A program made the translations under genes and the position numbers. The notes below the pieces were generated by a model that searched no databases, was not told the origin of the DNA, and saw nothing but the letters and a program-made list of their open reading frames with translations. Positions 13,057 through 45,172 of a DNA stretch of 64,000 nt are shown piece after piece (the stretch's first letter is position 1; the number at the start of each line of letters is the position of its first letter). This DNA is from Bacteroidota bacterium (GTDB lineage Bacteria > Bacteroidota > Ignavibacteria > UBA10030 > UBA8401), in contig WBUG01000004.1 of NCBI GenBank assembly GCA_008933835.1, positions 27,005 to 91,004 on the forward strand, written 5' to 3'.

Positions 13057-14097
13057 GTGAAAACCACCATAAAACAGGTCGCAGAGAAGGCCGGCGTCTC
13101 CATCGCCACCGTTTCCCGTGTCATCAACGGCTTCGAAAATGTGAACGCCGAGACGAGGGAGCGCATCATGAAGGTGGTGGCGGAGCTCAAATACACGCCG
13201 AACCTCGCCGCCCGCGGGCTCATCATGAAGCGGACGGAAGCCATCGGTCTGCTGCTGCCGGACCTGCACGGTGAGTTCTTTTCGGAGGTGATCCGGGGGG
13301 TGGACGAAGCGGTCCAGCGTCAGCAATACCATCTTCTGGTCTCCAGTTCGCACAACGACACGAAGGAGATCGAGGCGGCGCTGCGGTTCATGCGGGGACG
13401 GGTCGATGCCATCATCGTGATGTCGCCGCAGGTCGATTCCGACCTCCTCCTCTCCAACCTGCCCAAAGGTCTTCCGGTCGTCCTCCTCAACTGTCATCTC
13501 AACAATCCCCATTTCGACTCCATCGTCATCGACGGCTTCGGCGGCGCGCGGGACATGGTGTCGTACCTGCTCGGCATCGGCCACACGCGCATCGCCGTCA
13601 TCAAGGGGGGAGAGAACAATCTCGAATCGCAGGAGCGTCTGCGCGGGTACCGCACCGCCTTCATCAATCACGGGATGACCTACAACAAGTCGCTCGAGTT
13701 CGACGGCGACTTCACCGAAGCCTCCGGCTACGAGGCGGCGCGCGAAGTGCTCGAACTCGAGGAGCGGCCCACCGCCATCTTCGCCTTCAACGATTCGATG
13801 GCCGTCGGCGCCATCGGCGCCATCCGCGAGGCGGGTCTCCGCATTCCCAACGACATCTCCGTCTGCGGTTTCGACGACATCCCGGTGGCGAAGTACCTCA
13901 GTCCGTCGCTCACCTCCGTACACGTCCCCATCCATGACCTCGGCGTCATGGCGGTGAACCGTGTGTTCGACCGGCTGCAGAACAAGGGGAAGACCAGCGC
14001 AGCGCACATCCTGGTCCCCACCACGCTGCAGATCCGCACCAGCTGCCGAAAGATCACTGTGCAACAGAATCAATCAAAGGAGGAATCGTCCCGGTGA
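13057..14097 (+). CDS. LacI-family transcriptional regulator
   Basis: N-terminal HTH (IKQVAEKAGVSIATVSRVING) plus a periplasmic-binding-fold sugar-binding domain. Confidence 0.85.
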   Translation: MKTTIKQVAEKAGVSIATVSRVINGFENVNAETRERIMKVVAELKYTPNLAARGLIMKRTEAIGLLLPDLHGEFFSEVIRGVDEAVQRQQYHLLVSSSHNDTKEIEAALRFMRGRVDAIIVMSPQVDSDLLLSNLPKGLPVVLLNCHLNNPHFDSIVIDGFGGARDMVSYLLGIGHTRIAVIKGGENNLESQERLRGYRTAFINHGMTYNKSLEFDGDFTEASGYEAAREVLELEERPTAIFAFNDSMAVGAIGAIREAGLRIPNDISVCGFDDIPVAKYLSPSLTSVHVPIHDLGVMAVNRVFDRLQNKGKTSAAHILVPTTLQIRTSCRKITVQQNQSKEESSR

Positions 14098-14165
14098 GGC
14101 AGTTCCGCGCTCCGGGACGGGCGGCTTCCTTCGTTTTTCATTCACAACCAACAAGGAGAGGTGCT

Positions 14166-16124
14166 ATGGTACACAAGAGGTTACTGTTTGCCCTGCTGCT
14201 CGTGTCGCTCGCGGCGTCGTTGACGGCGCAGCCGAAGCGGCCCGATGCGGTGTGGGGCCGTCAGGTGCCGGCCGGAACGATCGTGCTGGACGGCGTCCTG
14301 AACGAAGCGGCGTGGGCGAAGGCCGAATCGCTGCAGATCAAGTACGGCACGAGCCTGGCCGGAGATCCGGGCAGCGGCTGGGTGAAAGAGAACGGCGTCG
14401 ACAGCGTCTATGATCCCATCGACGCGACGGTGAAGTTCCTCATCGGCGCCAACAACAAGATGTACGTTTCGGTCTATGCGAAAGACAAGTCCATCGGCGG
14501 CGGTTTCTGGGCGCAGTTCGACGCCATGCTGATGAACGTCCGCGACAAGAAGAACAAGGACGCCAACACCGGCATCGCGAGCCCGTACGAGTTCTTCTAT
14601 GGATGGGTGGCGGAGGGTTGGGCGGACCCGACCCTGAACGTCGGCCAGAAACATCCCGGTTTCTTCGGGTGGGCCGGCGGTCACCGTGACAGTCTCTGCA
14701 CCGACGCCAACCACGGCGATCTGGGGATCAAGAACAAGGACATCTGGAACGCCGCCACGAAGGTGTACGGCGTGCAGAACAACGACTCGTCGGCCAACTC
14801 GCAGGACACCGCGTGGGTCACCGAGTTCGAGTTCGACCTCGCCCGCCGCGGTTATGATGTGGCGAAGACGGGGGGCGACATCGTCATGTACAACCTCGCC
14901 ATCTTCGACGCGGACTACCGCTGGCCGGTCGACACCAACAAGGTGCGCGGCCACCGCGCCTGGCTGCAGGGTCCGTGGGGCAACGCTTCGGCCTACAGCC
15001 ACCTCCGCATCTTCACCGACCCGGCCGTCGGCCTGAACTCCGCCCTTCCGGCCATGCCGTACGACGTCACCATCTACGACGGCAAGGACCATGCGGCTCC
15101 GACGGTGGACGGCAAACTGGACGAGAACGTATGGAAGAGCACGCCGGGCTTCACCATCAAGTACGGCGACAACGCCGTCCGCGCGGCGTACAAGAACACG
15201 ATGCCGTTCCGCAGCGGACAGTTCCAGCCCTCCGTCTACGGCGTGAAGGCCGACGTGCTGAACCCGGCCGAAGCGGTCGTGAAGATGTTCTTCAAGAACG
15301 ACACCCTCTATGTCGGCGTCGACGTGAAGGACCAGGTGGTGCAGTATCGTCCCGAGTTCGACCGTCAGGACGGCTTCCGCTTCATGCCGAAGAGCCGTTC
15401 CGAGCGCGATGCCGGCGAGAAGTTCCTGATGTCCCGCGAGATCTTCGTGCGGGTCGACACCTCCGCGAAGAAGTACTCCCTGGAAGGCTTCGGTCCGGAA
15501 CTCGTGGCCGACACCAATGCGAACAAGGGGAGCAAGATCGTCCTCGGCCTGAACACCGGCACCACCATCGACACCCTCGGTGCCTCGGCCGATGCCGGAT
15601 ACCAGATCGAGATGAAAATCAACCTGCGCGCCCTCGGCTATGCCGCCGGCCGCAATGACGGTCTGTTCTGGTTCGGCGGTCTGCTGCTCGACGGCGACAC
15701 CTTCGGCAACACCCTGCCGCCGTACGGCAACCGGGTGTGGTTCGGCCAGGAAGGGACCTGGAACGACGGTCCGGCCCTCGCGTACATGGACCCGACCATG
15801 GTCGTCGCCGGCGTGAAGCCGGGTGACGCCGTGGTACCGGGCGAGTTCCAGCTCCATGGCGCGTATCCGAACCCGTTCAACCCCTCGACCACCATCGAGT
15901 TCTCGCTCCCCGCCGCCTCGAACGTGAAGGTGTCGGTGTACGACATGCTCGGCCGCGTGGTCTCCGAACGCTCCATCTTCGGACTCGGTGCGGGACGCCA
16001 GGCCTACCAGTTCAACGCCTCGACGTTCGCCTCCGGTGCGTACATCTACCGGGTGCAGATGCTCGACCTGCGTACCGGAGAGGTCCTCTCCGCGAAGGTC
16101 GGCAAGATGATGCTCACGAAGTAA
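14166..16124 (+). CDS. Secreted protein with two CBM9-like modules and T9SS CTD
   Basis: Two DGxLNE/DExxW blocks (LDGVLNEAAW, VDGKLDENVW) typical of CBM9/DOMON-like folds; C-terminal YPNPFNPSTTIEF CTD; signal peptide at the Met at 14166. Confidence 0.5.
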   Translation: MVHKRLLFALLLVSLAASLTAQPKRPDAVWGRQVPAGTIVLDGVLNEAAWAKAESLQIKYGTSLAGDPGSGWVKENGVDSVYDPIDATVKFLIGANNKMYVSVYAKDKSIGGGFWAQFDAMLMNVRDKKNKDANTGIASPYEFFYGWVAEGWADPTLNVGQKHPGFFGWAGGHRDSLCTDANHGDLGIKNKDIWNAATKVYGVQNNDSSANSQDTAWVTEFEFDLARRGYDVAKTGGDIVMYNLAIFDADYRWPVDTNKVRGHRAWLQGPWGNASAYSHLRIFTDPAVGLNSALPAMPYDVTIYDGKDHAAPTVDGKLDENVWKSTPGFTIKYGDNAVRAAYKNTMPFRSGQFQPSVYGVKADVLNPAEAVVKMFFKNDTLYVGVDVKDQVVQYRPEFDRQDGFRFMPKSRSERDAGEKFLMSREIFVRVDTSAKKYSLEGFGPELVADTNANKGSKIVLGLNTGTTIDTLGASADAGYQIEMKINLRALGYAAGRNDGLFWFGGLLLDGDTFGNTLPPYGNRVWFGQEGTWNDGPALAYMDPTMVVAGVKPGDAVVPGEFQLHGAYPNPFNPSTTIEFSLPAASNVKVSVYDMLGRVVSERSIFGLGAGRQAYQFNASTFASGAYIYRVQMLDLRTGEVLSAKVGKMMLTK

Positions 16125-16132
16125 CGCGGTTC

Positions 16133-16165: not shown

Positions 16166-16249
16166 CTCTGTCGCACCAAACGGCGTCGGCCTGTCGTCCC
16201 ATCCCGTGCCGCCATCCACGTCGCAGCCGTCCATCAGTACGAGGTCACT

Positions 16250-18916
16250 ATGCGCACAATCCACCGTCCGGATGCACCGCTGTTCCCTGCCGCGCTGTCG
16301 TCCGGCGTCCGGCTCCTCCTGTTGCTCATCGTCGGCACCGCGTCCCTCGCCGCGGACACGCGCGGCAAGCTCGCCGGACGCGTGGTGGACGAACGGACGA
16401 ACGAGCCGCTCATCGGCATCAACATCGTCCTCGTCGGCACCTCCACCGGCGCCGCCACGGACTTCGAGGGGAACTACGTCATCCTGAACATCCCCCCCGC
16501 ATCGTACGAGGTGCGGTTCAGCGGTGTGGGCTACGCCGCCAAGGTCATCCGCGAAGTGCGCGTCAGCGCCGGGCAGACCACCACGCTCAACCTCTCCATG
16601 GCCGAAGAGGTGGTGAAGGGGCAGGAGGTCGTCATCATCGCCACGCGTCCCATCGTCGATACGCGCCAGACGAGCGCCGTCAGCATCATGGACAGCAAGG
16701 AGATCGACGCGATGCCGGTGCAGGAACTGAGCGACATCGTGAACCTGCAGGCGGGGGTCGTGGACGGACACTTCCGCGGCGGCCGGATCGGCGAAGTGCA
16801 GTACCAGGTGGACGGTGTCTCCATCAACAATCCCTACGACAACTCCGCCAGCATCCGCATCGACAAGTCCATCATCCAGGAGGTGCAGGTCGTCAGCGGA
16901 ACGTTCGACGCCGAGTACGGCCAGGCGATGTCCGGCGTCGTGAACGCCATCCTCAAGAGCGGCTCCGGCGAACGGTACGACTACGCGGCCGAGGCCTACA
17001 TCGGCCAGTACGTCGGCGATGCGGGGCGGTATCCGTACATCGACCGGTTCCGTCCCTTCACCACACAGAGCTACCAGTTCAGTCTCAGCGGTCCCACGCC
17101 GCTCCCGAACACCACGTTCCTCGTGAGCGGTCGCCGGCTGATGGACGACGGCTACCTCTACGGCGAGCGGCGCTTCTCGCCGTTCGATACGATGGGGACC
17201 GACGCGGCGCTGACGAAGCATCCCACCGGCGACAACGAGATCGTCCCGATGAACTACTTCAACGAATGGTCCGGCCAGGCCAAAGTCTCCACCCGCCTCA
17301 GCGCCGAGATGCAGCTCAGCTACCAGCTCGTCTTCAACCAGAGCGACCAGAAGAACTACTCGTACAGCTGGCGCTTCAATCCGGAGGGGCTCACCGTGCC
17401 GAAACGGAGCTCGTTCGTGCACGGACTCGACTGGACCCACAACCTCTCCCCGACGCTCTTCTACACCGTGAGCGCCCGGCAGAACTCGTTCGACTACAAG
17501 GACTACATGTACGAGGACGTGTTCGATCCGCGCTATGATCAGGCGCGCGACCCGCGGAGCGACGCCAACTATTTCGACGGCGCCGTGGTGCAGGGGGTGA
17601 GCTTCACGCGGTTCATCCAGCGGACCAATTCGTACGTCGCCAAATCGTCGGTCACCTGGCAGGCGGACAACGTCCATCTGCTCAAAGCAGGCATCGAAGG
17701 ACAGCTCGCCACGATCGAGTTCGGCGCGCCGGGTTCGCTGACGATGGTGGCGGACAAGGTGCAGCGCATCACGCTCGACACGCTCAATGCCGCGGTGGTG
17801 ACGTCGCGACCGCGCTGGCTCTCGGGTTACGTGCAGGACAAGATGGAGTTCACCAACATCGTGCTGCGCGGCGGCGTCCGGGTGGAGGCGTTCGACGCCA
17901 ATACCACCGTCCCCGGCGACCTCGCCAACCCGGTGAACGCCATCCCCGGTGCGCCGACCGCGGCGCCGAAGGCGGCCACAATGAAGGTCTCCGTCGCCCC
18001 GCGTCTCGGCATCTCGTACCCCATCACGGACCGCAGTTCGGTCTTCTTTTCCTACGGCCACTTCTATCAGTACCCCGCGCTCGGCAATCTCTTCTCCAAC
18101 GCGAACTACAACGTGCTCCGCTATCTGCAGGAGGGGGGCATCAGCTACGGCGTGATGGGCAATCCGGACCTTGAACCGGAACGGACCATCCAGTACGAGT
18201 TCGGATACAAAGGGGCGGTCACCGACATGTTCGGCGTCGATGTGAGCGTCTTCTATAAGGACATCCGCGACCTGCTCGGCGTCGAGTTCATCTCCACGTA
18301 CACCGCCGCGGAGTACGCCCGGTTCACCAACGTGGACTTCGGCGGTGTGACCGGCTCGACCATCGCGCTGGACTACCGGGCGGGGACGTTCAGCGCGTCG
18401 ATGGACTATACGTTCCAGGTCGCGCTGGGCAATTCGTCCGACCCGCGTGAGACCGCGAACCGCGCGGCCGCCGGCGAGGACCCCCGCCCGCGTGTGGTGC
18501 CGCTCGGCTGGGACCAGCGCCATACCATGAACGTGATCCTCGGACTGTCGGAGCCGGACGACTACGGCGTCTCGCTCATCATGCGTCTGCAGAGCGGACA
18601 GCCGTACACCCCCGAACTGACCCCCGGGTTCAACGGCGAGATCGAGACGAACTCCGGCGCCAAACCCGGCTCGTTCGTGACCGACCTGCGCGTGGAGAAG
18701 TTCCTGACCCTGGGCGGGCTACGGTTCTCCGTCTTCACCCGGGTGAGCAACCTGTTCGGCACGCACTACTCCAACGGGTTCGTCTTCGCCAACACCGGGT
18801 CGGTGGACTACAGCCTGAACCCGTACGTATCGCGCACCACCCTTGCGGACCCGTCACGGTACTATGCGCCGCGGAAGATCGAAGCGGGCATTTCGCTGAA
18901 CGGCATGTTCGAGTGA
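16250..18916 (+). CDS. TonB-dependent outer-membrane receptor, SusC-like, with N-terminal carboxypeptidase-regulatory-like domain
   Basis: CarbopepD_reg-like N-terminus (GRVVDERTNEPLIGINIV...GNYVILNIPP), a plug region and a long beta-barrel ending ...GISLNGMFE. Confidence 0.8.
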   Translation: MRTIHRPDAPLFPAALSSGVRLLLLLIVGTASLAADTRGKLAGRVVDERTNEPLIGINIVLVGTSTGAATDFEGNYVILNIPPASYEVRFSGVGYAAKVIREVRVSAGQTTTLNLSMAEEVVKGQEVVIIATRPIVDTRQTSAVSIMDSKEIDAMPVQELSDIVNLQAGVVDGHFRGGRIGEVQYQVDGVSINNPYDNSASIRIDKSIIQEVQVVSGTFDAEYGQAMSGVVNAILKSGSGERYDYAAEAYIGQYVGDAGRYPYIDRFRPFTTQSYQFSLSGPTPLPNTTFLVSGRRLMDDGYLYGERRFSPFDTMGTDAALTKHPTGDNEIVPMNYFNEWSGQAKVSTRLSAEMQLSYQLVFNQSDQKNYSYSWRFNPEGLTVPKRSSFVHGLDWTHNLSPTLFYTVSARQNSFDYKDYMYEDVFDPRYDQARDPRSDANYFDGAVVQGVSFTRFIQRTNSYVAKSSVTWQADNVHLLKAGIEGQLATIEFGAPGSLTMVADKVQRITLDTLNAAVVTSRPRWLSGYVQDKMEFTNIVLRGGVRVEAFDANTTVPGDLANPVNAIPGAPTAAPKAATMKVSVAPRLGISYPITDRSSVFFSYGHFYQYPALGNLFSNANYNVLRYLQEGGISYGVMGNPDLEPERTIQYEFGYKGAVTDMFGVDVSVFYKDIRDLLGVEFISTYTAAEYARFTNVDFGGVTGSTIALDYRAGTFSASMDYTFQVALGNSSDPRETANRAAAGEDPRPRVVPLGWDQRHTMNVILGLSEPDDYGVSLIMRLQSGQPYTPELTPGFNGEIETNSGAKPGSFVTDLRVEKFLTLGGLRFSVFTRVSNLFGTHYSNGFVFANTGSVDYSLNPYVSRTTLADPSRYYAPRKIEAGISLNGMFE

Positions 18917-18950
18917 CCGGCGCCGCCGGTCGTCACCACCAACTTTCAGA

Positions 18951-21900
18951 GTGTACGGAGACCCTCCACCTATGAACAGCACACCACTCTTCCGCACGGC
19001 GCTCGCGCTCGTCCTGCTCGCCGCCTCCGCAGCAGCCCAGCCCCGGCCCACCGTCACGCCGGACCGCCGCGGCGACCTCTCGTACGAGCGGACCGGACAG
19101 CACGACGCCAACAACATCCGCACCGAGTTCCTGAACTACGGCATGGTGGGGAACTACTTCGGCGGCGACGCCGACTTCAGCGTGAAGCACTCGATGGAAG
19201 TGCCGAAGGGGAGCGGAACGAACTACACCGACGGGGCGACCCCCTTCATCCTCGCGCGCGTCATCCAGAACGACGCCACGCCGAAGGACATCATGCTCAC
19301 CGGCTACCGTGAGCGGCAGGAAGGGGAGCCGTTCGGACGCTGGGTCATGCGCTTCGAACCGCGTCCGGGCTACTTCCAGGCGGACCCGACCATCAACCGC
19401 GGACGCTCCATCGCCATCAGCAACGATTCGCGCACCTGGCCGTACCAATGGTACGACAAACTGACCGACGTCACCGATCCGGGGTGGAAAGGGTCGTGGT
19501 ACGGATACTTCGGGAAGCGGCCGGCGGCGGACCAGGAGAGCTTCTTCGTCATGGACGACAACTACTACACCAACATGAGCTTCAACCCCGACGTCCGCGA
19601 CGTCACGCGGCGCGGACTGGCGACCTCCATGGAAGTGCGCGGGTTCCAGTGGTCCAATCCCCAGGCGGGCAACGTGCTGTTCTACCACTACGACGTCGTC
19701 AACGAAGGGACGACCGATTACAACGACAACATCTTCTTCGGCATCTACGTCGACTCCGGCGTCGGCGGCTCCACCATCTCGTGCGACGGCGTCTATGAAT
19801 CCGACGACGACAACGCGTACTTCGATCCGAAATCGTTCGGTCTCAACCTGAACCTCACCTATACCTGGGATTCGCACAGCACCGGCGTGTCGCTCACCAG
19901 CAACTGCGTGAAGACCGGCTATCTCGGCTACGCCTACCTCGAAACGCCGGGGAATCCGTTCGACGCGAAGGACAACGACCTGGACGGCATCACGGACGAG
20001 AAGCGCGACGGCGGTCCCGGCACGCTCATCCAGGGTGCGAACGCCATCCGCACCCATGTGAACGCCAACTACAACCGGACCCTCTTCGACACCACCTACG
20101 GCGCGCTCGAACTGCAACCGGCGTTCGGGACCGAGTACTGGTGGACGGGGGATGAGGACCTGGACTGGACCGCCGAGTTCGACGACACCGGCGTGGACGG
20201 TATCTTCGGCACCAACGACACCGGTGAGAAGGACGGCATGCCGACCGCGGGCGAGACGAACTTCGACCGGACGGACGTCGACGAGTCGGACCAGATCGGA
20301 CTGACCGGCTTCAAGATGAACCGTATCGCGGCCGGACAGGGGGCGAGCAGCACGGAGGTGGACGGCATCGTCTTCTATAATAACGGCATCAAGAACTGGC
20401 CGAAGCTGTTGTACGACATGTGGACCGATCCCATCGAAGCCAACCGATACTCGCCGCCGCTGGTGCTGAACTATAACATCGGATTCTTCTTCACCTCCGG
20501 CACCTTCAAACTGCAGGTCGGCAAGCAGGAACGGTTCAGTCTCGCCCTGGCGTACGGCGGGGGCCTCTCCGAGCTGCGCACCGTGGTGAAAGTGGTCCAG
20601 AAGATCTACGTCTCCAACTATCAGTTCGTCGTTCCGCCGCTGCTGCCGGCGTTGACGGCACAGGTGGACGACCGGAAAGTGAAGCTCACCTGGAGCGACT
20701 ACTCCGAACGAAGCCCCGATCCGGTGACGAAGAAGCTCGACTTCGAAGGCTACAAGGTGTACCGTTCCACCGATCCGGACTTCAACGACATCCGGACCAT
20801 CTCCAACGGACAGGGGACCGGCAAGCTCCCCTTCGGCACCCCCATCGCGCAGTTCGACCTGGACAACGCGTACGACGGCTTCTCGTCCATCACCGTGGAC
20901 GGCGTCGGATACTACCTCGGCGAGAACACCGGTATCACGCACACCTTCACCGACACCACGGTGAAGAACGGGTTCACGTACTATTACGCGGTGGTGGCGT
21001 ACGACCATGGCGACGACAATCTGGGATACTATCCTTCGGAGAACGCCGTCACCGTCTCGCGCACCGCGCGGGGCGGCACCATCCTTCCCAAGAACGTGGT
21101 GGAGGTGCGTCCCAACCCGCGGGCGTCGGGCTTCGTCGAAGCCGCGGCCGGCACCGTGCGGAAGAAGAACGGCTCCGGCACCGGTTCCGTGGCGGTGAAC
21201 GTCGTCAACTCCTCCGACGTGCCGGACGGACGGACGATGCTGCTGCGGATGAAGACCATCGCCCCCGAGAACGTGCGGGCGGACTACTATCAGCTCGTGG
21301 ACAGCGCCAGCGGCACGGTCTACATCGAGCGCGGCTCGGACTTCGAGGCGACGGGCAAGGGGGAGGTGGGGGCCGGACTGATCCCGTTGGTGAGCACCAT
21401 CCCGAACGTCCAGATCGACGCGGACAATTCCGGATTCCTCGCCGGCAGCCAGGGCACCGTGCGGATGAACGTCACGTACGCGCTCGGCGCACCCTCCATC
21501 AATCACAAGCGCCCGGGATTCCCGTTCGACATGGAGATCGAGTTCTTCGCGACCTCTGTGGACACCTCGCTGCCGCTGAACTTCCTCATCCCCGGACGTC
21601 CGGTGAAGTACAAGGTGTGGGCGCTCACCCCGCAGGGGAAGCTGCCGCTCAAGACCTTCTTCACCGACGGTTCGCTGAGCAAGGACAGCACGCTCAACTC
21701 TCCCGACGACATCATGTACATCGCCACCGATTCGGCGAAGCAGACGTGGTCCGTGAAGGTCGACACGACGGCCGTCACCGGGGCCATCGTTCCTCCCCAG
21801 CCGGGTGACGTATACCGCATCGCGCTCCGTCATCCCTTTGCGGACGGCGAAGAGTTCGCCTTCCGCACGACGGGTCAGCGCATCGACGCAGCGAAAGCGG

Positions 21901-22223
21901 GTGAGGACGGGCTCTATCAGCCGTACGTCGTTCCGAATCCCTACGTCGCCGCAGCGGCGTTCGAGCCGGAACGGTTCGCGGTCTCGGGCCGCGGCATCCG
22001 GCGCATCGAGTTCCGCGGACTCCCGTCCACCTGCACCCTCCGCATCTACACCGTGCGCGGGGAACTGGTGCAGACACTGCGGCAGGAGAACTCGCTGGAA
22101 GGATACCTCGCCTGGAACCTCCGCACGAAGGACAATCTGGAGGTCGCCCCCGGGCTGTACATCTTCCATGTGGACGGCGGCCCGCTCGGTGAGAAGACGG
22201 GCAAATTCGCCATCATCAAATAG
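18951..22223 (+). CDS. Very large secreted surface protein with Asp-rich Ca-binding-like repeats, an FN3-like module and a probable T9SS CTD
   Basis: Signal peptide (probable start at ATG 18972); DNDLDGITDE / DEDLDW / DTGVDGIFG repeats; the C-terminal ...GLYIFHVDGGPLGEKTGKFAIIK resembles a T9SS sorting domain. Confidence 0.5.
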   Translation: MYGDPPPMNSTPLFRTALALVLLAASAAAQPRPTVTPDRRGDLSYERTGQHDANNIRTEFLNYGMVGNYFGGDADFSVKHSMEVPKGSGTNYTDGATPFILARVIQNDATPKDIMLTGYRERQEGEPFGRWVMRFEPRPGYFQADPTINRGRSIAISNDSRTWPYQWYDKLTDVTDPGWKGSWYGYFGKRPAADQESFFVMDDNYYTNMSFNPDVRDVTRRGLATSMEVRGFQWSNPQAGNVLFYHYDVVNEGTTDYNDNIFFGIYVDSGVGGSTISCDGVYESDDDNAYFDPKSFGLNLNLTYTWDSHSTGVSLTSNCVKTGYLGYAYLETPGNPFDAKDNDLDGITDEKRDGGPGTLIQGANAIRTHVNANYNRTLFDTTYGALELQPAFGTEYWWTGDEDLDWTAEFDDTGVDGIFGTNDTGEKDGMPTAGETNFDRTDVDESDQIGLTGFKMNRIAAGQGASSTEVDGIVFYNNGIKNWPKLLYDMWTDPIEANRYSPPLVLNYNIGFFFTSGTFKLQVGKQERFSLALAYGGGLSELRTVVKVVQKIYVSNYQFVVPPLLPALTAQVDDRKVKLTWSDYSERSPDPVTKKLDFEGYKVYRSTDPDFNDIRTISNGQGTGKLPFGTPIAQFDLDNAYDGFSSITVDGVGYYLGENTGITHTFTDTTVKNGFTYYYAVVAYDHGDDNLGYYPSENAVTVSRTARGGTILPKNVVEVRPNPRASGFVEAAAGTVRKKNGSGTGSVAVNVVNSSDVPDGRTMLLRMKTIAPENVRADYYQLVDSASGTVYIERGSDFEATGKGEVGAGLIPLVSTIPNVQIDADNSGFLAGSQGTVRMNVTYALGAPSINHKRPGFPFDMEIEFFATSVDTSLPLNFLIPGRPVKYKVWALTPQGKLPLKTFFTDGSLSKDSTLNSPDDIMYIATDSAKQTWSVKVDTTAVTGAIVPPQPGDVYRIALRHPFADGEEFAFRTTGQRIDAAKAGEDGLYQPYVVPNPYVAAAAFEPERFAVSGRGIRRIEFRGLPSTCTLRIYTVRGELVQTLRQENSLEGYLAWNLRTKDNLEVAPGLYIFHVDGGPLGEKTGKFAIIK

Positions 22224-22241
22224 CCGACCGGGAGCGCACAC

Positions 22242-23255
22242 ATGAAAACGACCAATCTCCTCCTCCTCGCCGCCTTCCTGATGACGGCGGCCGTTCCCGC
22301 CGCGGCCCAGACCAACGTCGGCACCACGCTCGGCCAGTTCCTCCTCATCGAGCCGAGCGGACGCATCGGCGCCATGGGGAACGCCGGAACCGCCGTCACC
22401 AACGAACCGATGGCGGCCTACTTCAATCCGGCCGCGCTCGCGCAGCAGACCCTCATGGGGGCGCAGGTGACGCACAGCGATTGGCTGGTGGGCATCTCGT
22501 ACGACTACGCCGTCGTGAACGTGCCGGTCGGCACCGGCGCAGGGTTGATGCTCAACGTCACTTCCCTCCAGTCCGGCGACATCGACGTCCGGACGACGGA
22601 CCTGCCGCACGGTACGGGCGAGAAGTACAGCGTTTCAGACATCGCCTTCGGACTCGGATACGGCATGAAACTCACCGACCGTGTGGCGGTTGGTCTTCAG
22701 GCGACGTACATTACGGAGCGCATCTGGCACAGCAGCGTCTCCCTCTTCGCCATCAATTTCGGGACGCAGTACCAGCTCACCGACGGCGGCATCATGCTCG
22801 GAGCGAGCCTCTCGAATTTCGGCACGCGGGACAGCTATTCGGGCCGCGACCTCCGGGTCCGGTACGACCAGAACAAGGACGTCGCCGGGGACAACAGCTC
22901 GCTCCCGGCCGAACTGTACACGGAGGAGTTCGGTCTGCCGACCATCTTCCGCGTCGGCGTCACCGTGCCGGTGACGCTGGCCGAAGGGCACGAACTGCTG
23001 GCGGCGGTGGACGCCGTCCATCCCAATAACAACACCGAGAGCATCAACATCGGCGCGGAGTACACCTTTTCGCAGCTCTTCTCCCTTCGGGCGGGATATC
23101 AGAACCTGTTCGAGACCGATGCGGAAGTGGGGTACACGGCCGGCGCCGGCGTCCTCTTCGAGGCCTCCGGTGTCGACTTCCGGGTCGATTACGCCTGGAC
23201 GGAGTACGGACGCCTCCTCTCGGTCCAGCGCCTGACCTTGTCGTTCGCGTTCTGA
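22242..23255 (+). CDS. FadL/OmpP1-family outer-membrane beta-barrel (PorV-like)
   Basis: Signal peptide, then GRIGAMGNAGTAVTNEPMAAYFNPAALA matching the FadL/PorV N-terminal G..G.A....NPA.L motif; alternating beta-strand pattern; ends in F. Confidence 0.45.
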   Translation: MKTTNLLLLAAFLMTAAVPAAAQTNVGTTLGQFLLIEPSGRIGAMGNAGTAVTNEPMAAYFNPAALAQQTLMGAQVTHSDWLVGISYDYAVVNVPVGTGAGLMLNVTSLQSGDIDVRTTDLPHGTGEKYSVSDIAFGLGYGMKLTDRVAVGLQATYITERIWHSSVSLFAINFGTQYQLTDGGIMLGASLSNFGTRDSYSGRDLRVRYDQNKDVAGDNSSLPAELYTEEFGLPTIFRVGVTVPVTLAEGHELLAAVDAVHPNNNTESINIGAEYTFSQLFSLRAGYQNLFETDAEVGYTAGAGVLFEASGVDFRVDYAWTEYGRLLSVQRLTLSFAF

Positions 23256-23295
23256 ACGGCGCATCATCACGTAGCACAGGAACCACGAACCCCTT

Positions 23296-25716
23296 ATGAA
23301 CACCGATCCATCGCAGTCCGGATTCCCCTTCCGGTCGCCGTACGGCCATTTTGACGACGACGGCTGGAGCTTTCGCATCACCACCCCCCGCACTCCGCGC
23401 CCCTGGACCAACGTCATCAGCAACGGCTCCGCCGGGCTCATCGTTTCGCAGGCCGGCGGCGGGTACAGCTGGCGCGAGAACGCGCAGCTCAACCGCATCA
23501 CCCGCTGGGAGCAGGACCTCATCAAGGACGAATGGGGGAAGTTCCTCTACCTGCGCGACACCGCCACCGGACGGTACTGGTCCGCCGGATGGAAGCCCGT
23601 GTGCGCGGAACCGGAGCACTACCACTGCGTGCACGGCATCGGGTACACGCGCATCGAGAACCGCACGGACGGGATCGAGTCGCACTGGACGATGTTCGTG
23701 CCGGAGAAGGACCCGGTCGAGGTCTGGCTCGTGACCCTCACGAACCGCTCGTCCGTTCCCCGCACGCTCCAGGCCGTCACCTATTTCGAATGGAACCTCG
23801 GCGCGGCGCCGGACTGGCACCGCGAGTTCCATCGCACCTTCATCGAAACGTCGTTCGACCGCACGCTCAACGCGATGCTCGCCACCAAACGGATGTGGGA
23901 AGTGCCGTCGGACAAGGGGCATTGGAACCGCGACTGGGAGTACACCGCCTTCAACGGATGCTCGGACACGGTCGCGTCCTATGACGGTGACAAGGAATCG
24001 TTCATGGGGATGTACCGCAGCGAACGGAACCCGAAAGCGGTGGAGGAGGGACGGCTCGCACAGCGGACCGGCAACTGGCTCGACGCCGTCTCGGCCCTGC
24101 AGAGCGACATCACGCTGGCGCCGGGCGAATCGCGTACGCTCGTGTACACGCTCGGCGCCGCGAAGGACCGCGCCGAAGCGGCGCGGCTCGTGAAGCGGTA
24201 CGGCACCGTCGAAGGAGCGTCCGCCGCTCTGGACGGGGTCCGCACCATGTGGAAGGACCTTCTCACCCGGTTCGCCGCCCGAACGCCGGACGACACGGTG
24301 AACACCATCCTGCAGCCGTGGCTCCAGTATCAATCCATCGCGGGACGGCTCTGGGGCCGCACGGGGTACTACCAGACCGGCGGAGCGTACGGCTTCCGCG
24401 ACCAGCTGCAGGACAGCCAGATCTTCCTCCCGCTCGACCCGGCGCAGACCGCCGCTCAGATCCGGCTCCACGCACGGCACCAGTTCAAGGACGGCACGGT
24501 GTACCATTGGTGGCATCCGCTCTCCGAACTCGGCCACCCCACGGACATGACGGACGACCTGCTGTGGCTTCCATACCTCGTCGGCATCTACCTCGACGAG
24601 ACCGGCGATCTCTCGCTGCTCAAAGCGAAGGAACCGTTCGTGGACGAAGCGAAAGGGGCGACCATCTACGACCATAGCGCGCGCGCCATCGACCGCGTGC
24701 TGAAGCGTCTCAGCAAACGCGGGATCCCGCTCATCGGCGCCGGCGACTGGAACGACGGGCTCAGCGCCGTCGGCCTGAAATGGAAGGGGGAGTCCATCTG
24801 GCTCGGACAGTTCCTCCACCGCATCCTGCTCGACTTCGCCGTCGTGGCGGAACGGGCCAAGGACGCGCCGCGCGCCCGGAAGTACCGCGCGGCCGCGGTG
24901 AAACTGCGGAAGGCCGTCAACACAAAGGGATGGGACGGGAAGTACTATTACGGAGCGACGAAGGACAACGGTGAGAGGCTCGGCAGCGCCTCGTGCCGTC
25001 AGGGGAAGGTCTGGCTCAATACGCAGACCTGGGCCATCCTCGGGGACGTCGCCGATGCGAAGAGGGCGGAGCAGGTCTTCCGCGTGGTCGAGACCGAACT
25101 GGAAGGGAAGAACGGCACGCTGCTGGTGAAGCCGGCGTACTCGGTCCCCGACCGCGAAGTGGGATATCTCACCCGTTATGCGGCCGGCATGCGCGAGAAC
25201 GGCGGCGTCTACACCCACGCCGCCACGTGGTCCGTGCTCGCCGCCGCGAAGCTCGGCAAGGCCGAGGCGGCGCTCCGGCTCTTCTCCAAGATCAATCCGG
25301 TGGTGAACGGGTTCAACGCGGACGAGTACGTCGCGGAACCGTACGTCACGCCGGGGAACATCGAAGGACCCGACTCACGGTTCTACGGCAAGGGGGGCTG
25401 GACGTGGTACTCCGGTTCCGCCGCCTGGCTCTTCAAGGGGGCGGTGGAAGGGATCCTTGGCGTCAAGGCGTCGTACGACGGGCTCGTCGTCGAACCGTGC
25501 ATACCCTCCCGGTGGGACGGCTATACGGTGAAACGGACGTTCCGCGGCGCTGTCTATCATATCACGGTGGAGAATCCCGCCCGCGTGGAAGGCGGGGTCG
25601 CCGCGGTTTCGGTGGACGGCCGGACGTTGAAGGTCGCCGCCGGTTCCCGTGCGGTGCTCCTGCCGGTGTTCCCCAAAGGGACCGAACATCAGGTCCGCAT
25701 CACCATGGGTGAATGA
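23296..25716 (+). CDS. GH94 glycoside phosphorylase (cellobiose/laminaribiose/beta-1,2-oligoglucan phosphorylase family)
   Basis: Conserved GH94 block YQTGGAYGFRDQLQDS; about 800 aa; no signal peptide (cytoplasmic). Confidence 0.8.
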   Translation: MNTDPSQSGFPFRSPYGHFDDDGWSFRITTPRTPRPWTNVISNGSAGLIVSQAGGGYSWRENAQLNRITRWEQDLIKDEWGKFLYLRDTATGRYWSAGWKPVCAEPEHYHCVHGIGYTRIENRTDGIESHWTMFVPEKDPVEVWLVTLTNRSSVPRTLQAVTYFEWNLGAAPDWHREFHRTFIETSFDRTLNAMLATKRMWEVPSDKGHWNRDWEYTAFNGCSDTVASYDGDKESFMGMYRSERNPKAVEEGRLAQRTGNWLDAVSALQSDITLAPGESRTLVYTLGAAKDRAEAARLVKRYGTVEGASAALDGVRTMWKDLLTRFAARTPDDTVNTILQPWLQYQSIAGRLWGRTGYYQTGGAYGFRDQLQDSQIFLPLDPAQTAAQIRLHARHQFKDGTVYHWWHPLSELGHPTDMTDDLLWLPYLVGIYLDETGDLSLLKAKEPFVDEAKGATIYDHSARAIDRVLKRLSKRGIPLIGAGDWNDGLSAVGLKWKGESIWLGQFLHRILLDFAVVAERAKDAPRARKYRAAAVKLRKAVNTKGWDGKYYYGATKDNGERLGSASCRQGKVWLNTQTWAILGDVADAKRAEQVFRVVETELEGKNGTLLVKPAYSVPDREVGYLTRYAAGMRENGGVYTHAATWSVLAAAKLGKAEAALRLFSKINPVVNGFNADEYVAEPYVTPGNIEGPDSRFYGKGGWTWYSGSAAWLFKGAVEGILGVKASYDGLVVEPCIPSRWDGYTVKRTFRGAVYHITVENPARVEGGVAAVSVDGRTLKVAAGSRAVLLPVFPKGTEHQVRITMGE

Positions 25717-27323
25717 TGAAAAAAACGATCCTCCTCTTCCTGCTCATCATCACCGCCGTTGTGGCGGAGGCGGGACAGCCGTTGTCGTCCATCTCCGCAA
25801 CGGACAGCACCTTCCTGCGGATGGTGCAGCGGAAGGCGTTCGATTTCTTCTGGCTGGAGGCCAATCCGGCCAACGGCCTCATCAAGGACCGTTCCGCCTC
25901 CTGGGCGCCGAGCAGCATCGCGTCGGTCGGCTTCGGACTGTCGAGCATCTGCGTCGCGTCGGACTACGGCTGGGTGACCCGCACAGCGGCAGCGGACCGC
26001 GTGCTGACCACGCTGAAGACCTTCTGGAACGGTCCGCAGGGCTACGCTGCTACCGGCATGATGGGACGCATCGGCTTCTTCTACCACTTCCTGCACATGG
26101 ACACCAAGGTGCGCGAGTGGAACTCCGAGCTCTCCACCATCGATTCGGCGCTCCTCCTGGCGGGCATCATCCATGCGATGGAGTACTTCGACGGCGGTGC
26201 GCAGGCCGAGCAGGACATCCGCGCGTACGCCGACTCCATCTACCGCCGCGTCAATTTCGAAGCGGCGCGCAACAACGGCATCGCCCTCAACATGGGGTGG
26301 CATCCGGAGTCCGGCTGGCTGAACTCCTGGTGGATCGGGTACAACGAAGCGATGATCCTGTACATCCTCGCCCTCGGTTCGCCGACCTATCCCATCGAGC
26401 CCGCACTCTGGGACAATTGGTGCGGTGGCTATAATTTCTCGACGCAGTACGGTTACCAGTACGTCATCTTTCCGCCCCTGTTCGGCCATCAGTACTCCCA
26501 CTGTTGGATCGATTTCCGTGGCATCCGTGACAAAGCGATGACGCAGTACGGCCTGGACTACTTCGAGAACTCGCGCCGCGCCACGCTCGCCCAGCGGGCG
26601 TACTGCGACGCCAACCCGAAGGGGTTCGCGGCGTACTCGGACAGTCTGTGGGGCATCACCGCGTCCGACGTGCAAGGCGGCTATGCGGCGCGCGGAGCAC
26701 CGCCGGCGCAGGGCGACGACGGCACGCTCAATCCGACCGCACCGGGAGGCTCCATGCCGTTCGCTCCCGAGGAATGTCTGCAGGCGCTGAAGGCGATGTA
26801 CAACAACTACTGCACCGGCAGCGAGACGAGACTGTGGGGGCCGTACGGATTCCGCGACGCGTTCAATCCGGCGAAGAACTGGTTCGGCACGGACTACATC
26901 GGCATCGACCAGGGTCCTATCGTGCTGATGATCGAGAACTATCTGACGCAGCGGGTGTGGGAGACGTTCATGAAGAGTCCCTACATCCAGACCGGACTGC
27001 AGCGCGCCGGATTCACGAAAGTGACCGGCGTGAACGGCATGCCGGCCGCACCGCGGCGTTTCGGACTGCAGCAGAACTTCCCGAACCCGTTCAATCCCTC
27101 CACCACCATCGTGTTCGACCTTCCGTCCGAAGGACGCGTCCGGCTCACGGTGACCGACCTGCTGGGGAAGGAAGTGGCGATGCTGGCGGACGAACGGCGG
27201 CCCGCCGGAACGCACGAAGTGCGGTTCGACGCGGCATCGCTGTCGCTCCCGAGCGGCGTATACTTCTACACGCTCGCCGCGGGGGGAAGCGTCCAATCCC
27301 GCAAGATGGTGCTCACGAAATGA
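25713..27323 (+). CDS. DUF3131/GH144-like putative beta-glucanase with T9SS CTD
   Basis: Signal peptide; blocks shared with the next gene (MILYILALGSPT, FGHQYSHCWIDFRGI); C-terminal LQQNFPNPFNPSTTIVF CTD. Confidence 0.5.
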   Translation: MMKKTILLFLLIITAVVAEAGQPLSSISATDSTFLRMVQRKAFDFFWLEANPANGLIKDRSASWAPSSIASVGFGLSSICVASDYGWVTRTAAADRVLTTLKTFWNGPQGYAATGMMGRIGFFYHFLHMDTKVREWNSELSTIDSALLLAGIIHAMEYFDGGAQAEQDIRAYADSIYRRVNFEAARNNGIALNMGWHPESGWLNSWWIGYNEAMILYILALGSPTYPIEPALWDNWCGGYNFSTQYGYQYVIFPPLFGHQYSHCWIDFRGIRDKAMTQYGLDYFENSRRATLAQRAYCDANPKGFAAYSDSLWGITASDVQGGYAARGAPPAQGDDGTLNPTAPGGSMPFAPEECLQALKAMYNNYCTGSETRLWGPYGFRDAFNPAKNWFGTDYIGIDQGPIVLMIENYLTQRVWETFMKSPYIQTGLQRAGFTKVTGVNGMPAAPRRFGLQQNFPNPFNPSTTIVFDLPSEGRVRLTVTDLLGKEVAMLADERRPAGTHEVRFDAASLSLPSGVYFYTLAAGGSVQSRKMVLTK

Positions 27324-27348
27324 CCGACGTACGATCCGGAACGACCGC

Positions 27349-45158: not shown

Positions 45159-45172
45159 CGGAGGCTACGGCC

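Follow-up and report, generated by a model that had tools for sequence, protein, structure and literature searches.

Three open reading frames, all on the plus strand, occupy positions 16250-23255 of the window (the whole 64,000-nucleotide stretch of DNA that was analyzed). They encode a TonB-dependent receptor (16250..18916; 888 aa), a large secreted protein of an undescribed family, here called BIG (18972..22223; about 1,083 aa), and a FadL-type outer-membrane barrel of the PorV/PorQ family (22242..23255; 337 aa, PorQ-sized). All further genes and domains described below lie on the same strand. Upstream, a LacI-family regulator gene (13057..14097; Pfam LacI and Peripla_BP_3/1) heads a probable transcription unit, with a promoter-like site (12994-13022) and a terminator-like hairpin (12907-12929) just ahead of it; within 14094-26000, terminator-like matches were not commoner than in shuffled sequence. 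The regulator gene is followed by a gene for a 676-aa secreted protein (14094..16124) with a weak CBM9-like region (CBM9_1, E 0.005) and a canonical type IX secretion system (T9SS) C-terminal domain (CTD; Por_Secre_tail, 36.7 bits), and a GH94 phosphorylase gene and two GH144-like (PF10091) genes, assigned by Pfam, lie downstream of the barrel gene (23296..28740).

The receptor and the barrel

The receptor scored above the respective Pfam cut-offs for CarbopepD_reg_2 (70 bits), Plug (28.6 bits) and the TonB_dep_Rec barrel (93.6 bits). Its carboxypeptidase-regulatory-like N-terminal extension (aa 41-129; 16370..16636; PF13715, 70 bits; PF13620, 65.5 bits) aligned with residues 5-123 of RagA (6sli_B). 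Ahead of the Plug domain (aa 140-230; 16667..16939; PF07715, 28.6 bits) lies the motif EVVIIATRP (aa 126-134; 16625..16651), with the consensus 'eVvV.A.rP' in 50 trio receptors, whose position ahead of the plug suggests a TonB-box role. The plug of trio receptors contains the strongly conserved sequence 'LPVQ.L.d.VNLQAGVVDGHFRGGR.GEVQYQ'. The initial annotation had described the receptor as SusC-like; the carboxypeptidase-regulatory N-domain was recovered by Pfam, but identity with SusC was rejected, since the receptor reached 82.8 bits on TIGR04056 (cut-off, 368.25) with a match limited to the N-terminal domain. The RagA/SusC matches in the PDB were restricted to the same domain.

The barrel, previously described as carrying a FadL/PorV motif, was confirmed as a PorV/PorQ-family protein (NF033709, 187 bits; cut-off, 90) rather than an unrelated outer-membrane protein. 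It aligned over its full length with the PorQ model (81.5 bits) and scored 73.1 bits with the PorV model, both below the equivalog cut-offs, and its one sequence match in the PDB was PorV (6h3i_F, E 9e-8). We propose that it serves as a dedicated anchor or shuttle for BIG; because it falls below both equivalog cut-offs, this putative role is extrapolated from the PorV/PorQ family as a whole.

Domain architecture of BIG

A GTG at 18951 would give BIG 1,090 codons (18951-22223); the ATG at 18972 is likely to be the true start, since a 100% identical database protein (P0001) has 1,083 aa. The Sec/SPI signal peptide (MNSTPLFRTALALVLLAASAAA, followed by Q; 18972..19040) was read directly from the sequence and lacks a lipobox cysteine; the signal region forms a helix (residues 12-28) in the structural model and has the family consensus '...AQ'. 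A cut before Gln agrees with the 'Q-rule' described for Bacteroidetes. Besides carrying this Sec signal and lacking a lipid anchor, BIG ends in a T9SS-type CTD. BIG matched no family in Pfam at E ≤ 0.01 and none in NCBIfam, and its fragments, searched against Pfam up to E ≤ 10, gave solely a very weak C-terminal FlgD_ig match (E 0.029), so that no match to SusD/RagB was obtained. Nor did a scan of large open reading frames across the window bring up a SusD-like gene, in agreement with the earlier remark that none follows the receptor gene. Relatives of BIG (2,302 word-index hits; 3,429 clusters at 50% identity) occur in Ignavibacteria, Calditrichia, KSB1, Eisenbacteria, Krumholzibacteriia, Kryptoniota, Rhodothermales and Stahlbacteria, with 55% identity across phyla. 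The AlphaFold model (pLDDT, 88.9; pTM, 0.78) consists largely of Ig/FN3-like β-sandwiches, and a structure search with it yielded no convincing global fold match in the PDB; PorZ ranked first or fourth among the Foldseek matches.

The N-terminal, β-rich domain of about 530 residues (19041..20630) was modeled with high confidence and is 61-69% identical between orthologues and 28-47% between paralogues, with numerous invariant Trp residues inside the β-1,2-glucan orthologue group. We propose it as the substrate- or receptor-facing part of BIG. A structure search with this domain returned no convincing match (TM-scores, 0.06-0.17), and no carbohydrate-binding module was recognized in BIG. Within it lie acidic Ca-binding-type loops of the DxDxDG kind (residues ~335-455; 19953..20315), for example DNDLDGITDE at residue 341, with the family consensus 'DNDxDGxIDE' and 'GDEDxDW...DDxGxDG...GEGDGxPTxGEPNFDxTDxDESDQIGLT'. 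This region is 47% identical even between paralogues, and residues D341, E350, D401, D412, E435, D442, E445 and D447 are invariant in 71 diverse members. Most family-invariant residues of BIG belong to the acidic loops and so speak for a function in structure and not in ligand binding. An FN3-like β-sandwich follows (residues 561-692; 20631..21026), with the conserved motifs DFEGYxIYRS and YYYAVxAYD; it weakly matched 3mpc, an Fn3-like protein (E 0.03-0.3). The next two β-sandwich domains (residues 693-988; 21027..21914; pLDDT mostly 80-96) are the most divergent of the family (41-49% identity in orthologues, 19-23% in paralogues).

The last domain is a divergent T9SS-type CTD (residues 989-1090; 21915..22223) with an insert of about 14 residues after the PNPYV motif, low pLDDT being confined to residues 997-1014. 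It was not detected by the Pfam Por_Secre_tail model, and hhalign comparison with 128 canonical CTDs from the window and related loci gave 98.8% (E 7e-17), against 0.6-0.9% for three control domains. By domain-wise identity, the CTD is the most conserved part of BIG (74% in orthologues, 47% in paralogues); in orthologues it is 68% identical as compared with 54% for the remainder of BIG, whereas in the neighboring cargo the CTD is no better conserved than the body (38% each). Its best sequence matches in the PDB, at marginal significance (E 0.024-0.036), were the CTDs of PorZ (5m11) and PorU (6za2). The Asp-rich Ca-binding-like repeats, FN3-like module and CTD-like tail that the initial annotation had read into the large protein are therefore all seen here: the first as conserved acidic loops, the second at the level of the weak 3mpc match and the modeled β-sandwich, and the third by profile-profile comparison.

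Conservation and genomic context of the trio

The receptor, BIG and the PorQ/PorV-like barrel form a fixed, tightly spaced trio inherited across many phyla. The receptor gene lies immediately upstream of BIG in 78 of 79 testable loci (median gap, 30 nt) and the barrel gene immediately downstream in 75 of 77 (median gap, 23 nt). The arrangement recurs in essentially every related locus examined, far beyond chance. Starting reciprocally from barrel homologues leads to the same locus, the trio was seen in MAGs of all the taxa listed above for BIG, and some genomes carry more than one trio (locus pairs L024 and L079, L055 and L067). The identities of the three proteins covary (about 55/50/48% in orthologues and 34/35/37% in paralogues), as is expected of any co-inherited operon.

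The trio is embedded in CAZyme loci, and paralogous trios are tied to other enzyme sets. GH144 and/or GH94 genes stand beside it in 39/39 orthologous and 0/27 paralogous loci; the latter adjoin GH38/GH130 or GH9, GH16, GH3, GH2, CBM9, malectin, ABC sugar transport and LacI genes. In the window, the PF10091 protein has its nearest matches among relatives of β-1,2-glucanases, being closest to XCC2207 (8xul) and also matching the endo-β-1,2-glucanase 5gzh. The GH94 gene and the two GH144-like genes define a β-1,2-glucan specificity of the orthologue group, which would be, more specifically than laminarin, its probable substrate. The setting of the module in a β-glucan utilization locus, implied by the laminarin or β-glucan first named for a co-expression test, is supported, with β-1,2-glucan in place of laminarin. 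A LacI homologue is encoded upstream in 26 of 42 orthologous loci, and a CTD-bearing open reading frame lies immediately upstream of the receptor gene in 46/46 orthologous and 19/22 paralogous loci. The 676-aa CBM9-like CTD protein may be a fourth component of the module that binds or processes glycans at the cell surface, and it, instead of BIG, could be the real glycan binder. T9SS CTDs were found on 32 of 80 flanking open reading frames of paralogous loci, and the cargos of the present locus include GH5, GH144 and CotH proteins. No T9SS core genes were seen in the window, where the presence of the system would be implied by the at least five CTD-bearing proteins alone.

We found no paper that interprets the trio, and the two that show or imply it in gene clusters give the trio-like genes no assigned role (PMC9530828, PMC8861115). 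The alginate PUL of Rhodothermus marinus contains, in this order, tonB (2,805 nt), hypA, annotated as a 'T9SS type A sorting domain protein' (2,181 nt), and hypB, a 'PorV/PorQ family protein' (1,056 nt) (PMC9530828); hypA, of about 727 aa as against about 1,083 aa for BIG, would be its candidate counterpart. The β-1,2-glucan (SGL) cluster of Ignavibacterium album comprises GH94, two GH144 and a GH3 gene, the gene of an ABC binding protein and one postulated to encode a TonB-dependent transporter, and thereby has the same enzyme set as the window (PMC8861115). The isolate probably carries the trio as well, judging from an I. album MAG fragment (L028) that encodes the receptor and BIG and ends inside BIG, ahead of the barrel position.

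Comparison with known systems

In the trio, as in the SusC/SusD (RagA/RagB) pairs of Bacteroidota PULs, the gene of a TonB-dependent barrel whose N-terminal extension is of the carboxypeptidase-regulatory type immediately precedes that of a large extracellular partner; the genes lie within CAZyme loci with a regulator and occur in many paralogous sets per genome, each with a different glycan. The trio differs in that the receptor falls below the SusC model (82.8 vs 368 bits), BIG is twice as large as SusD, shows no similarity to it and lacks a lipid anchor, a PorQ/PorV-like barrel is the obligatory third gene, and BIG would depend for surface attachment on the T9SS and not on the export of lipoproteins. 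In the T9SS attachment complex of Porphyromonas gingivalis, the atypical CTDs of PorZ and PorU are kept uncleaved and serve non-covalent surface anchorage, PorQ being the anchor of PorZ (PMC10947112). The pairing of a PorV/PorQ-family barrel with a large β-rich surface protein is common to both systems, whereas BIG scored 17 vs 260 bits on the PorZ model and did not match the PorU model, and the trio is multicopy and placed in catabolic loci beside a receptor, instead of being one housekeeping copy, and has no link to LPS attachment.

Dedicated PorP/SprF-type shuttles are reported to be encoded beside their type B CTD substrates (PMC12618676, PMC9143113). As in SprF-SprB of Flavobacterium johnsoniae, where the barrel sets the final location of its cognate CTD surface protein, the barrel gene of the trio adjoins that of a CTD protein; unlike those shuttles, it belongs to the PorV/PorQ family, the BIG CTD is related to type A rather than type B, and the substrates are PUL components rather than adhesins. 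In Bacteroides, lids unlike SusD have been proposed for TonB-dependent transporters outside the SusC family (Price et al. 2023, bioRxiv 10.1101/2023.03.17.533168). The trio is similar in that a non-SusD partner adjoins a non-SusC transporter as a proposed cover of its outer face, but the Bacteroides lids are lipoproteins and occur solely in Bacteroides and related taxa, whereas BIG is a non-lipoprotein that would require a companion barrel.

Alternative explanations

BIG might be a scaffold or glycan binder of the SGBP type that the PorQ-like barrel tethers at the surface, where it would help to capture polymer or organize secreted enzymes and neither cap nor directly feed the receptor, in which case the gene linkage would reflect co-regulation and co-assembly only. 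Its size, its prevalent Ig/FN3-like β-sandwiches reminiscent of adhesins and SGBPs, its variable middle domains and its constant place among T9SS cargo enzymes are consistent with this. SGBP genes in PULs are, however, variable in position and poorly conserved, whereas BIG holds its place between receptor and barrel, some 30 nt from its neighbors, in more than 97% of loci and keeps its 55% identity across phyla, and the SGBP-like upstream position is already taken by the CBM9-like CTD protein; we consider such a role rather doubtful. BIG as a new extracellular glycoside hydrolase or lyase at the receptor mouth is very unlikely. Its richness in conserved acidic residues and the Foldseek matches to GH94, GH149 and dextran-dextrinase structures (6ggy, 6hq6, 9ju0; probability, 1.0) point in that direction, but the TM-scores were 0.15-0.17, no Pfam or CAZy-like match was obtained, the invariant acidic residues lie in DxDxDG-type Ca loops, and one family would have to serve glycans as unrelated as β-1,2-glucan, mannosides and GH9/GH16 substrates.

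The barrel, for its part, had been suggested as a dedicated T9SS shuttle of the PorV kind that serves the locus's many CTD cargos; BIG would then be just the largest of these. The abundance of CTDs among flanking genes and within the window would suit such a shuttle, as would the reported role of PorV as general shuttle for type A CTDs (PMC12618676, PMC5562754). This is less likely than pairing with BIG, because the barrel gene follows BIG in 75/77 loci at a median of 23 nt, the CTD is the most conserved domain of BIG, unlike that of the neighboring cargo, and its best PDB matches belong to proteins bound to PorQ and PorV. The barrel is moreover linked to BIG, irrespective of whether other cargos are encoded and how many, the BIG CTD is set apart by its insert and its escape from Pfam whereas neighboring cargo CTDs are ordinary, and several trios per genome would mean many redundant general shuttles; on balance, a shuttle for all cargos appears unlikely. 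Comparison with the BAM complex of Bacteroidota, in which a 14-stranded FadL-type barrel, BamG, packs on the larger barrel BamA and its loops hold the extracellular protein BamH (PMC12578637), offers a similar attachment platform next to a larger barrel, although that complex has a different function, outer-membrane protein biogenesis, and BamH is a lipoprotein. By analogy, the trio barrel could act on the receptor as a BamG-like factor for assembly or attachment, with BIG as a BamH-like extracellular scaffold, the trio aiding biogenesis instead of handling substrate, and in some paralogous loci PPIase genes do come after that of the barrel. The trio barrel is not BamG (23 vs 250 bits), however, and a general assembly factor would not be expected to show substrate-linked paralogy, which leaves this account with a very slim chance.

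Proposed glycan-import unit

Of the readings considered, the comparative data best support the 'alternative glycan-capture complex' raised at the outset: the trio is strictly syntenic across phyla, and its paralogues accompany different sets of CAZymes, as is the case for SusC/D pairs. With a probability of about 0.5, we infer that the trio is a SusD-less glycan-import unit in which BIG, exported by the T9SS and held through its CTD by its own PorQ-like barrel, is the SusD-like partner of the receptor. BIG would be exported by Sec and then pass the outer membrane via the T9SS; its CTD would stay uncleaved and be captured by the barrel encoded directly downstream, comparable to PorQ-PorZ and PorV-PorU, which would tether BIG at the cell surface without a lipid anchor. 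Placed beside or above the receptor, BIG would bind oligosaccharides through its Ca-stabilized N-terminal domain and/or its variable β-sandwich domains and pass them on for TonB-powered uptake. At this locus, the cargo would be β-1,2-gluco-oligosaccharides freed by a T9SS-secreted GH144 enzyme and, after uptake via an ABC transporter encoded downstream, processed by GH144, GH3 and GH94 enzymes in the periplasm and cytoplasm. The trio may thus represent one outer-membrane unit that replaces SusC/SusD in SusD-lacking relatives of Bacteroidetes.

A TonB-dependent receptor and a PorV/PorQ-family barrel flank a large secreted protein

The first gene of the trio (16250-18916, + strand) encodes an 888-aa protein that comparison with Pfam, NCBIfam and PDB sequences placed in the TonB-dependent receptor superfamily, its Plug (PF07715, 28.6 bits) and C-terminal β-barrel (PF00593, 93.6 bits) lying above the Pfam gathering scores of 23.9 and 27, respectively. 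The carboxypeptidase-regulatory N-domain that the initial annotation had read from the sequence was recovered as an N-terminal extension (PF13715, 70 bits; PF13620, 65.5 bits). A candidate TonB box (EVVIIATRP, aa 126-134) precedes the plug, its consensus being eVvV.A.rP when 50 receptors of related loci were aligned, and the same alignment showed the plug itself to be very conserved. The accompanying label "SusC-like" needs correction: the SusC/RagA model TIGR04056 scored 82.8 bits against a curated cut-off of 368.25, its alignment was confined to residues 40-165 (model positions 2-119), and RagA/SusC sequence matches in the PDB were confined to the same N-terminal domain. Because these matches reach the N-terminal domain only, the protein is identified by profile evidence as a TonB-dependent receptor whose N-terminal extension is of the SusC style, and not as SusC.

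The third gene (22242-23255, + strand) encodes a 337-aa barrel that matched the PorV/PorQ family model NF033709 with 187 bits (curated cut-off, 90) over residues 29-337 (model positions 2-326 of 326), and its only PDB sequence match was PorV (6h3i_F, E 9e-8). The earlier description of a FadL/PorV-like barrel is thereby supported at the family level. Narrower assignments were rejected: PorV proper (NF033710) scored 73.1 bits against an equivalog cut-off of 250 and aligned with the N-terminal half only; PorQ proper (NF033711) scored 81.5 bits against 220, aligning end to end (residues 7-333 with positions 4-331 of 335); and BamG (NF053685) scored 23 bits against 250. The barrel is shorter than PorV (337 versus about 400 aa) and, as judged from these profiles, is a PorQ-sized member of the PorV/PorQ family.

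Between the two lies BIG, a secreted protein of about 1,083 aa. Its ORF spans 18951-22223 (+ strand); the start is probably the ATG at 18972, since a database protein of identical sequence is 1,083 aa long, and residues are numbered here from the ORF start. The N-terminus reads as a Sec/SPI signal without a lipobox cysteine. Cleavage before Gln (AAA↓Q) was predicted for the signal peptides of both BIG (18972-19040) and the barrel (22242-22310), as well as in the consensus of both family alignments (A1 and A2), in keeping with the Bacteroidetes "Q-rule" (N-terminal pyroglutamate), which is reportedly not general to the FCB group. A first AlphaFold model of BIG, built with 31 close homologues, had a poor N-terminal half (pLDDT 59); a 71-sequence alignment including paralogues of 30-40% identity raised the values to pLDDT 88.9 and pTM 0.78. 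Model and alignment together delimited a signal peptide (residues 8-30), a β-rich N-terminal domain (31-560) enclosing acidic loops (~335-455), an FN3-like sandwich (561-692), two further β-sandwiches (693-988) and a C-terminal β-sandwich (989-1090). The acidic loops carry DNDLDGITDE and the consensus GDEDxDW...DDxGxDG...GEGDGxPTxGEPNFDxTDxDESDQIGLT, and most positions invariant throughout the family are Asp and Glu residues of these loops. Apart from the corrected label, every element of the initial description of the three ORFs was accurate.

Searches for known families in BIG returned little. No Pfam family matched the whole protein at E≤0.01, no SusD-like Pfam family matched the whole protein at that threshold or any fragment even at E≤10, NCBIfam gave nothing beyond a 17-bit tail match to the PorZ C-terminus, and no carbohydrate-binding module was recognizable. 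BIG was accordingly rejected as SusD/RagB, its model also being mostly β and its signal peptide lacking the cysteine. PorZ (NF052228; 17.3 bits against 260, in the C-terminal domain only) and PorU (no model hit) were likewise rejected, Foldseek TM-scores being about 0.1. The reported lack of a SusD/RagB gene after the receptor holds, as neither Pfam nor NCBIfam gave a SusD match for the next gene and a scan of large ORFs throughout the 64-kb window turned up no SusD-like gene.

BIG ends in a conserved T9SS-type C-terminal domain

The initial annotation had seen a tail resembling the T9SS C-terminal sorting domain (CTD) on BIG. The Por_Secre_tail models (PF18962/TIGR04183) gave no match to the isolated C-terminus even at E≤10, the only hit being FlgD_ig (E 0.029). 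We compared a profile of the last 100 residues of the family with one built from 128 canonical, Pfam-type CTDs of the window and of related loci; this reference set contained no BIG C-termini, and the result was nearly the same when two were included. The two profiles aligned in hhalign with 98.8% probability (E 7e-17), as against 0.6-0.9% for three other BIG domains used as controls, and hmmsearch with the local CTD profile recovered 60 of 71 family members at E≤1e-4. The C-terminus was modeled as a β-sandwich by AlphaFold and has the traits of bona fide CTD homologues (PNP motif, β-sandwich, G-x-Y and C-terminal K); the only low-confidence stretch of the BIG model is an insert of ~14 residues after PNPYV. 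The suspected tail is, on this profile and model evidence, a T9SS-type CTD. The CTD of the family representative P0243 is fully canonical (E 4e-31 against the local CTD profile), so the divergent form is not universal in the family; most members reached only 1e-4 to 1e-7.

The CTD is also the most conserved domain of BIG, with 74% identity among orthologues (relatives of ≥45% identity) and 47% among paralogues (≤36%), and the middle sandwiches fall as low as 19-23%. Across orthologues, the CTD was 68% identical versus 54% for the remainder of BIG, and a neighboring cargo protein had no CTD excess (CTD 38%, body 38%). PDB sequence and profile searches with BIG matched only the FN3 module and the CTD; besides FN3, the family profile found only the CTDs of PorZ (E 0.024) and PorU (E 0.036), which are the two T9SS substrates with uncleaved CTDs, PorZ being anchored by PorQ (PMC10947112).

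The trio is a conserved module around a large, unannotated protein family

A word-indexed search scored 2,302 BIG relatives, the best 120 of which were 55-75% identical over their full length, came from KSB1, Calditrichaeota, Eisenbacteria, Zhuqueibacterota and "Bacteroidetes" MAGs and, where named, were called "hypothetical protein" or, once, "fibronectin type III domain-containing protein." An exhaustive search extended the family to 3,429 clusters (50% identity, E≤1e-3). Scanning one genome per species confirmed at least 570 BIG loci in Ignavibacteria, Eisenbacteria, Krumholzibacteriia, Calditrichia, Kryptoniota, Rhodothermales/Rubrivirga, Stahlbacteria and others, some genomes carrying more than one copy. 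An apparent short subfamily (660-724 aa, no signal peptides), of a size that could have suited hypA of the Rhodothermus marinus alginate PUL, was discounted, as its members look like contig-end fragments truncated N-terminally.

The order receptor, BIG, barrel was found in all neighborhoods inspected. As quantified by tblastn over 90 fetched loci, the receptor lay immediately 5' of BIG in 78 of 79 testable loci (median gap, 30 nt) and the barrel immediately 3' in 75 of 77 (median gap, 23 nt). A reverse search starting from barrel homologues led to the same locus, with the downstream gene order of the window. The trio recurs as a conserved module and is no peculiarity of this locus. Strict adjacency was broken only in L087, where extra genes of about 1,000 and 450 codons separate receptor from BIG and BIG from barrel, and in L089, where BIG is not followed directly by a detected barrel and has a receptor downstream in its place. 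A CTD-bearing gene adjoins the receptor on its 5' side in 46/46 orthologous and 19/22 paralogous loci, so the conserved unit really comprises four genes; its counterpart in the window (14094-16124) has a weak CBM9-like region. A promoter and terminator scan found no convincing terminator inside the probable transcription unit, using a sigma-70 consensus that may not suit this lineage. Some paralogous trios have a SurA-like peptidyl-prolyl isomerase (rotamase) gene right after the barrel gene (13562-15445 in L008; 12246-13907 in L009), reminiscent of the PPIase subunits of the Bacteroidota BAM dome; such genes account for 4 of 80 flanking ORFs in paralogous loci, and L008 and L009 also carry a second TonB-dependent receptor farther downstream.

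The module is embedded in glycan utilization loci that differ in substrate

The window is GC-rich (about 64%), and its carbohydrate locus is one long co-directional cluster on the + strand. It opens with GH3, MFS, GH16, GH5 and GH63-like genes, followed by CotH-CTD, GH5-CBM6-CTD and GH3-PA14; a LacI gene, the CBM9-like CTD protein and the trio come next, then GH94, GH144-like-CTD, GH144-like, GH2 and GH3, and finally an ABC binding protein, a permease, GH78-like and GH43. Co-directional CAZymes, a TonB-dependent transporter and a regulator make it a polysaccharide utilization locus (PUL) in the broad sense. The CotH kinase-like protein (6753-8411; PF08757, 196 bits), which has a T9SS CTD and lies between the GH63-like and GH5-CBM6 genes, is an odd companion for CAZymes. 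The 641-aa ORF at 35448-37373 matches an ABC permease only over residues 458-634 and shares bases with the end of the binding-protein gene (34397-35674); one or more true permease genes probably begin well downstream of 35448, the start given by the mechanical ORF call.

The PF10091 protein of the window was nearest to XCC2207, and an endo-β-1,2-glucanase was also matched. The β-1,2-glucan cluster of Ignavibacterium album (around IALB_1177-1187) has the same enzyme set, one enzyme of which was characterized on sophoro-oligosaccharides (PMC8861115). These similarities point to β-1,2-glucan as the likely substrate; given the GH16 and GH5 genes also present, the locus may target mixed β-glucans. 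The product of 23296-25716 resembles IALB_1177 of the I. album cluster.

GH144 or GH94 flanked BIG orthologues in 39/39 loci and paralogues in 0/27. Neighbors of the paralogues were GH38/GH130 mannoside genes or GH9, GH16, GH3, GH2, CBM9 and malectin, along with genes for ABC sugar transport, regulators of the LacI/GntR or two-component type and numerous T9SS cargos. The SusC/SusD pairs show the analogous pattern, in which duplicates of an unchanging transport core are joined to differing enzyme sets.

Beyond the locus, two adjoining paralogous HDOD/HD-domain proteins (292 and 295 aa; 44280-46042) precede the nucleotide-sugar epimerase genes. A giant 1,628-aa GT4-GT2-TPR fusion (49616-54502) and a second GT2-TPR protein (54223-55752) lie just 5' of five flagellin-sized genes in tandem (55902-56765, 56970-57803, 57964-58788, 58983-59807 and 60030-60851), which suggests possible flagellin or surface glycosylation. 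Flagellin_N and Flagellin_C matched all three of the five that were scanned, fliD (61318-62748) follows, and the region 55902-62748 has a strikingly high AT skew (0.17-0.19). This organism therefore encodes flagella besides using T9SS.

Discussion

Our analysis indicated that receptor, BIG and barrel are inherited together within PULs, BIG being by sequence a Sec-exported non-lipoprotein with a T9SS-type CTD and the barrel a PorV/PorQ-family member. That the three form one functional unit of glycan uptake loci is very probable. In the mechanism that we propose, BIG would pass the outer membrane via T9SS, the adjacent barrel would retain it at the surface through its kept CTD, and BIG would there serve the receptor; we put this complete scheme at roughly even odds (about 50%). 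For its middle step, the CTD conservation, the PorZ and PorU CTD matches and the precedents for adjacent barrels make it more likely that CTD and barrel are a dedicated pair than that BIG is handled as ordinary cargo. Dedicated barrels encoded beside their own CTD-bearing surface proteins are an established T9SS theme (PMC12618676, PMC9143113), and in the Bacteroidota BAM complex a FadL-type barrel provides an attachment platform beside a larger barrel (PMC12578637). For its last step, the invariant gene order, the link of paralogues to substrate and the existence of lids unrelated to SusD (bioRxiv 10.1101/2023.03.17.533168) lead us to infer that BIG may be a SusD-like lid or binding subunit of the receptor.

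Other arrangements would account for some of the same data. BIG could be tethered by the barrel and act as a surface glycan-binding protein or scaffold without contacting the receptor, which is the most credible of the alternatives and would draw on the same CTD and barrel, though we consider it unlikely given the near-invariant receptor-BIG adjacency. The initial annotation had offered either an alternative glycan-capture complex or a PorV-like T9SS shuttle dedicated to the many CTD cargos of the locus. Synteny and substrate-linked paralogy favor the former; a barrel shuttling all cargos would suit the wealth of CTD proteins around the trio and is improbable, as the barrel-CTD pairing looks dedicated. 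A new enzyme could hide in a protein devoid of Pfam families and with invariant acidic residues, a reading to which we give little weight beside a core that stays constant as the enzyme sets around it change. Slighter still is the chance of a BamG/BamH-like assembly aid, for which the FadL-type barrel of the BAM complex offers a parallel and the low BamG score of the barrel speaks against it.

Returning to the tethered, receptor-serving BIG, the trio would resemble SusC/SusD in working mode without belonging to that family; a full match to the SusC model, a SusD partner and a lipoprotein anchor were each sought and not found. Its anchoring logic is like that of PorQ-PorZ and PorV-PorU, with the difference that BIG is neither PorZ nor PorU and the barrel matches the family-level model only. 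BIG with a PorQ-like barrel could, somewhat more tentatively than the mechanism itself, represent a third, unrecognized route to a surface-exposed TonB-transporter complex, beside SusD lipoproteins and alternative lipoprotein lids.

The SusC/SusD pair, on which PUL prediction and current views of the glycan uptake mechanism are based, is essentially confined to Bacteroidota. Lineages carrying the trio abound as degraders in sediments, soils, hot springs and bioreactors and are usually scored with no or "incomplete" PULs. In a searchable literature library, covering topics including PorV/PorQ, SusD, PUL, T9SS, Ignavibacteria, Calditrichaeota and Melioribacter, we found no paper interpreting the trio. 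A figure of the alginate PUL of R. marinus depicts tonB, hypA (T9SS type A sorting domain protein) and hypB (PorV/PorQ family protein) as hypothetical genes (PMC9530828), and the I. album study names only a putative TonB-dependent transporter (PMC8861115).

Collectively, we infer that the trio is a PUL outer-membrane import core assembled from T9SS parts and a new protein family that is large, widespread and unannotated, with a strikingly invariant architecture and a mechanism that is so far a proposal. A three-gene marker (receptor, BIG and PorQ-like barrel) would let the glycan uptake loci of these lineages be located and counted, and would assign a function to more than 3,400 clusters of ~1,000-residue "hypothetical proteins" without a Pfam model. 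It would give PorV/PorQ-type barrels a part in nutrient import as well as in secretion and provide a testable answer to how large binding proteins are placed beside TonB transporters without the surface-lipoprotein export route of Bacteroidota. In the window, the trio would supply the missing outer-membrane step of the β-1,2-glucan pathway postulated for Ignavibacterium album. If the proposal is correct, a functional equivalent of SusD would exist in at least eight FCB-group lineages (Ignavibacteria, Calditrichia, KSB1, Eisenbacteria, Krumholzibacteriia, Kryptoniota, Rhodothermales and Stahlbacteria), and T9SS would be structurally essential to glycan import, beyond enzyme secretion.
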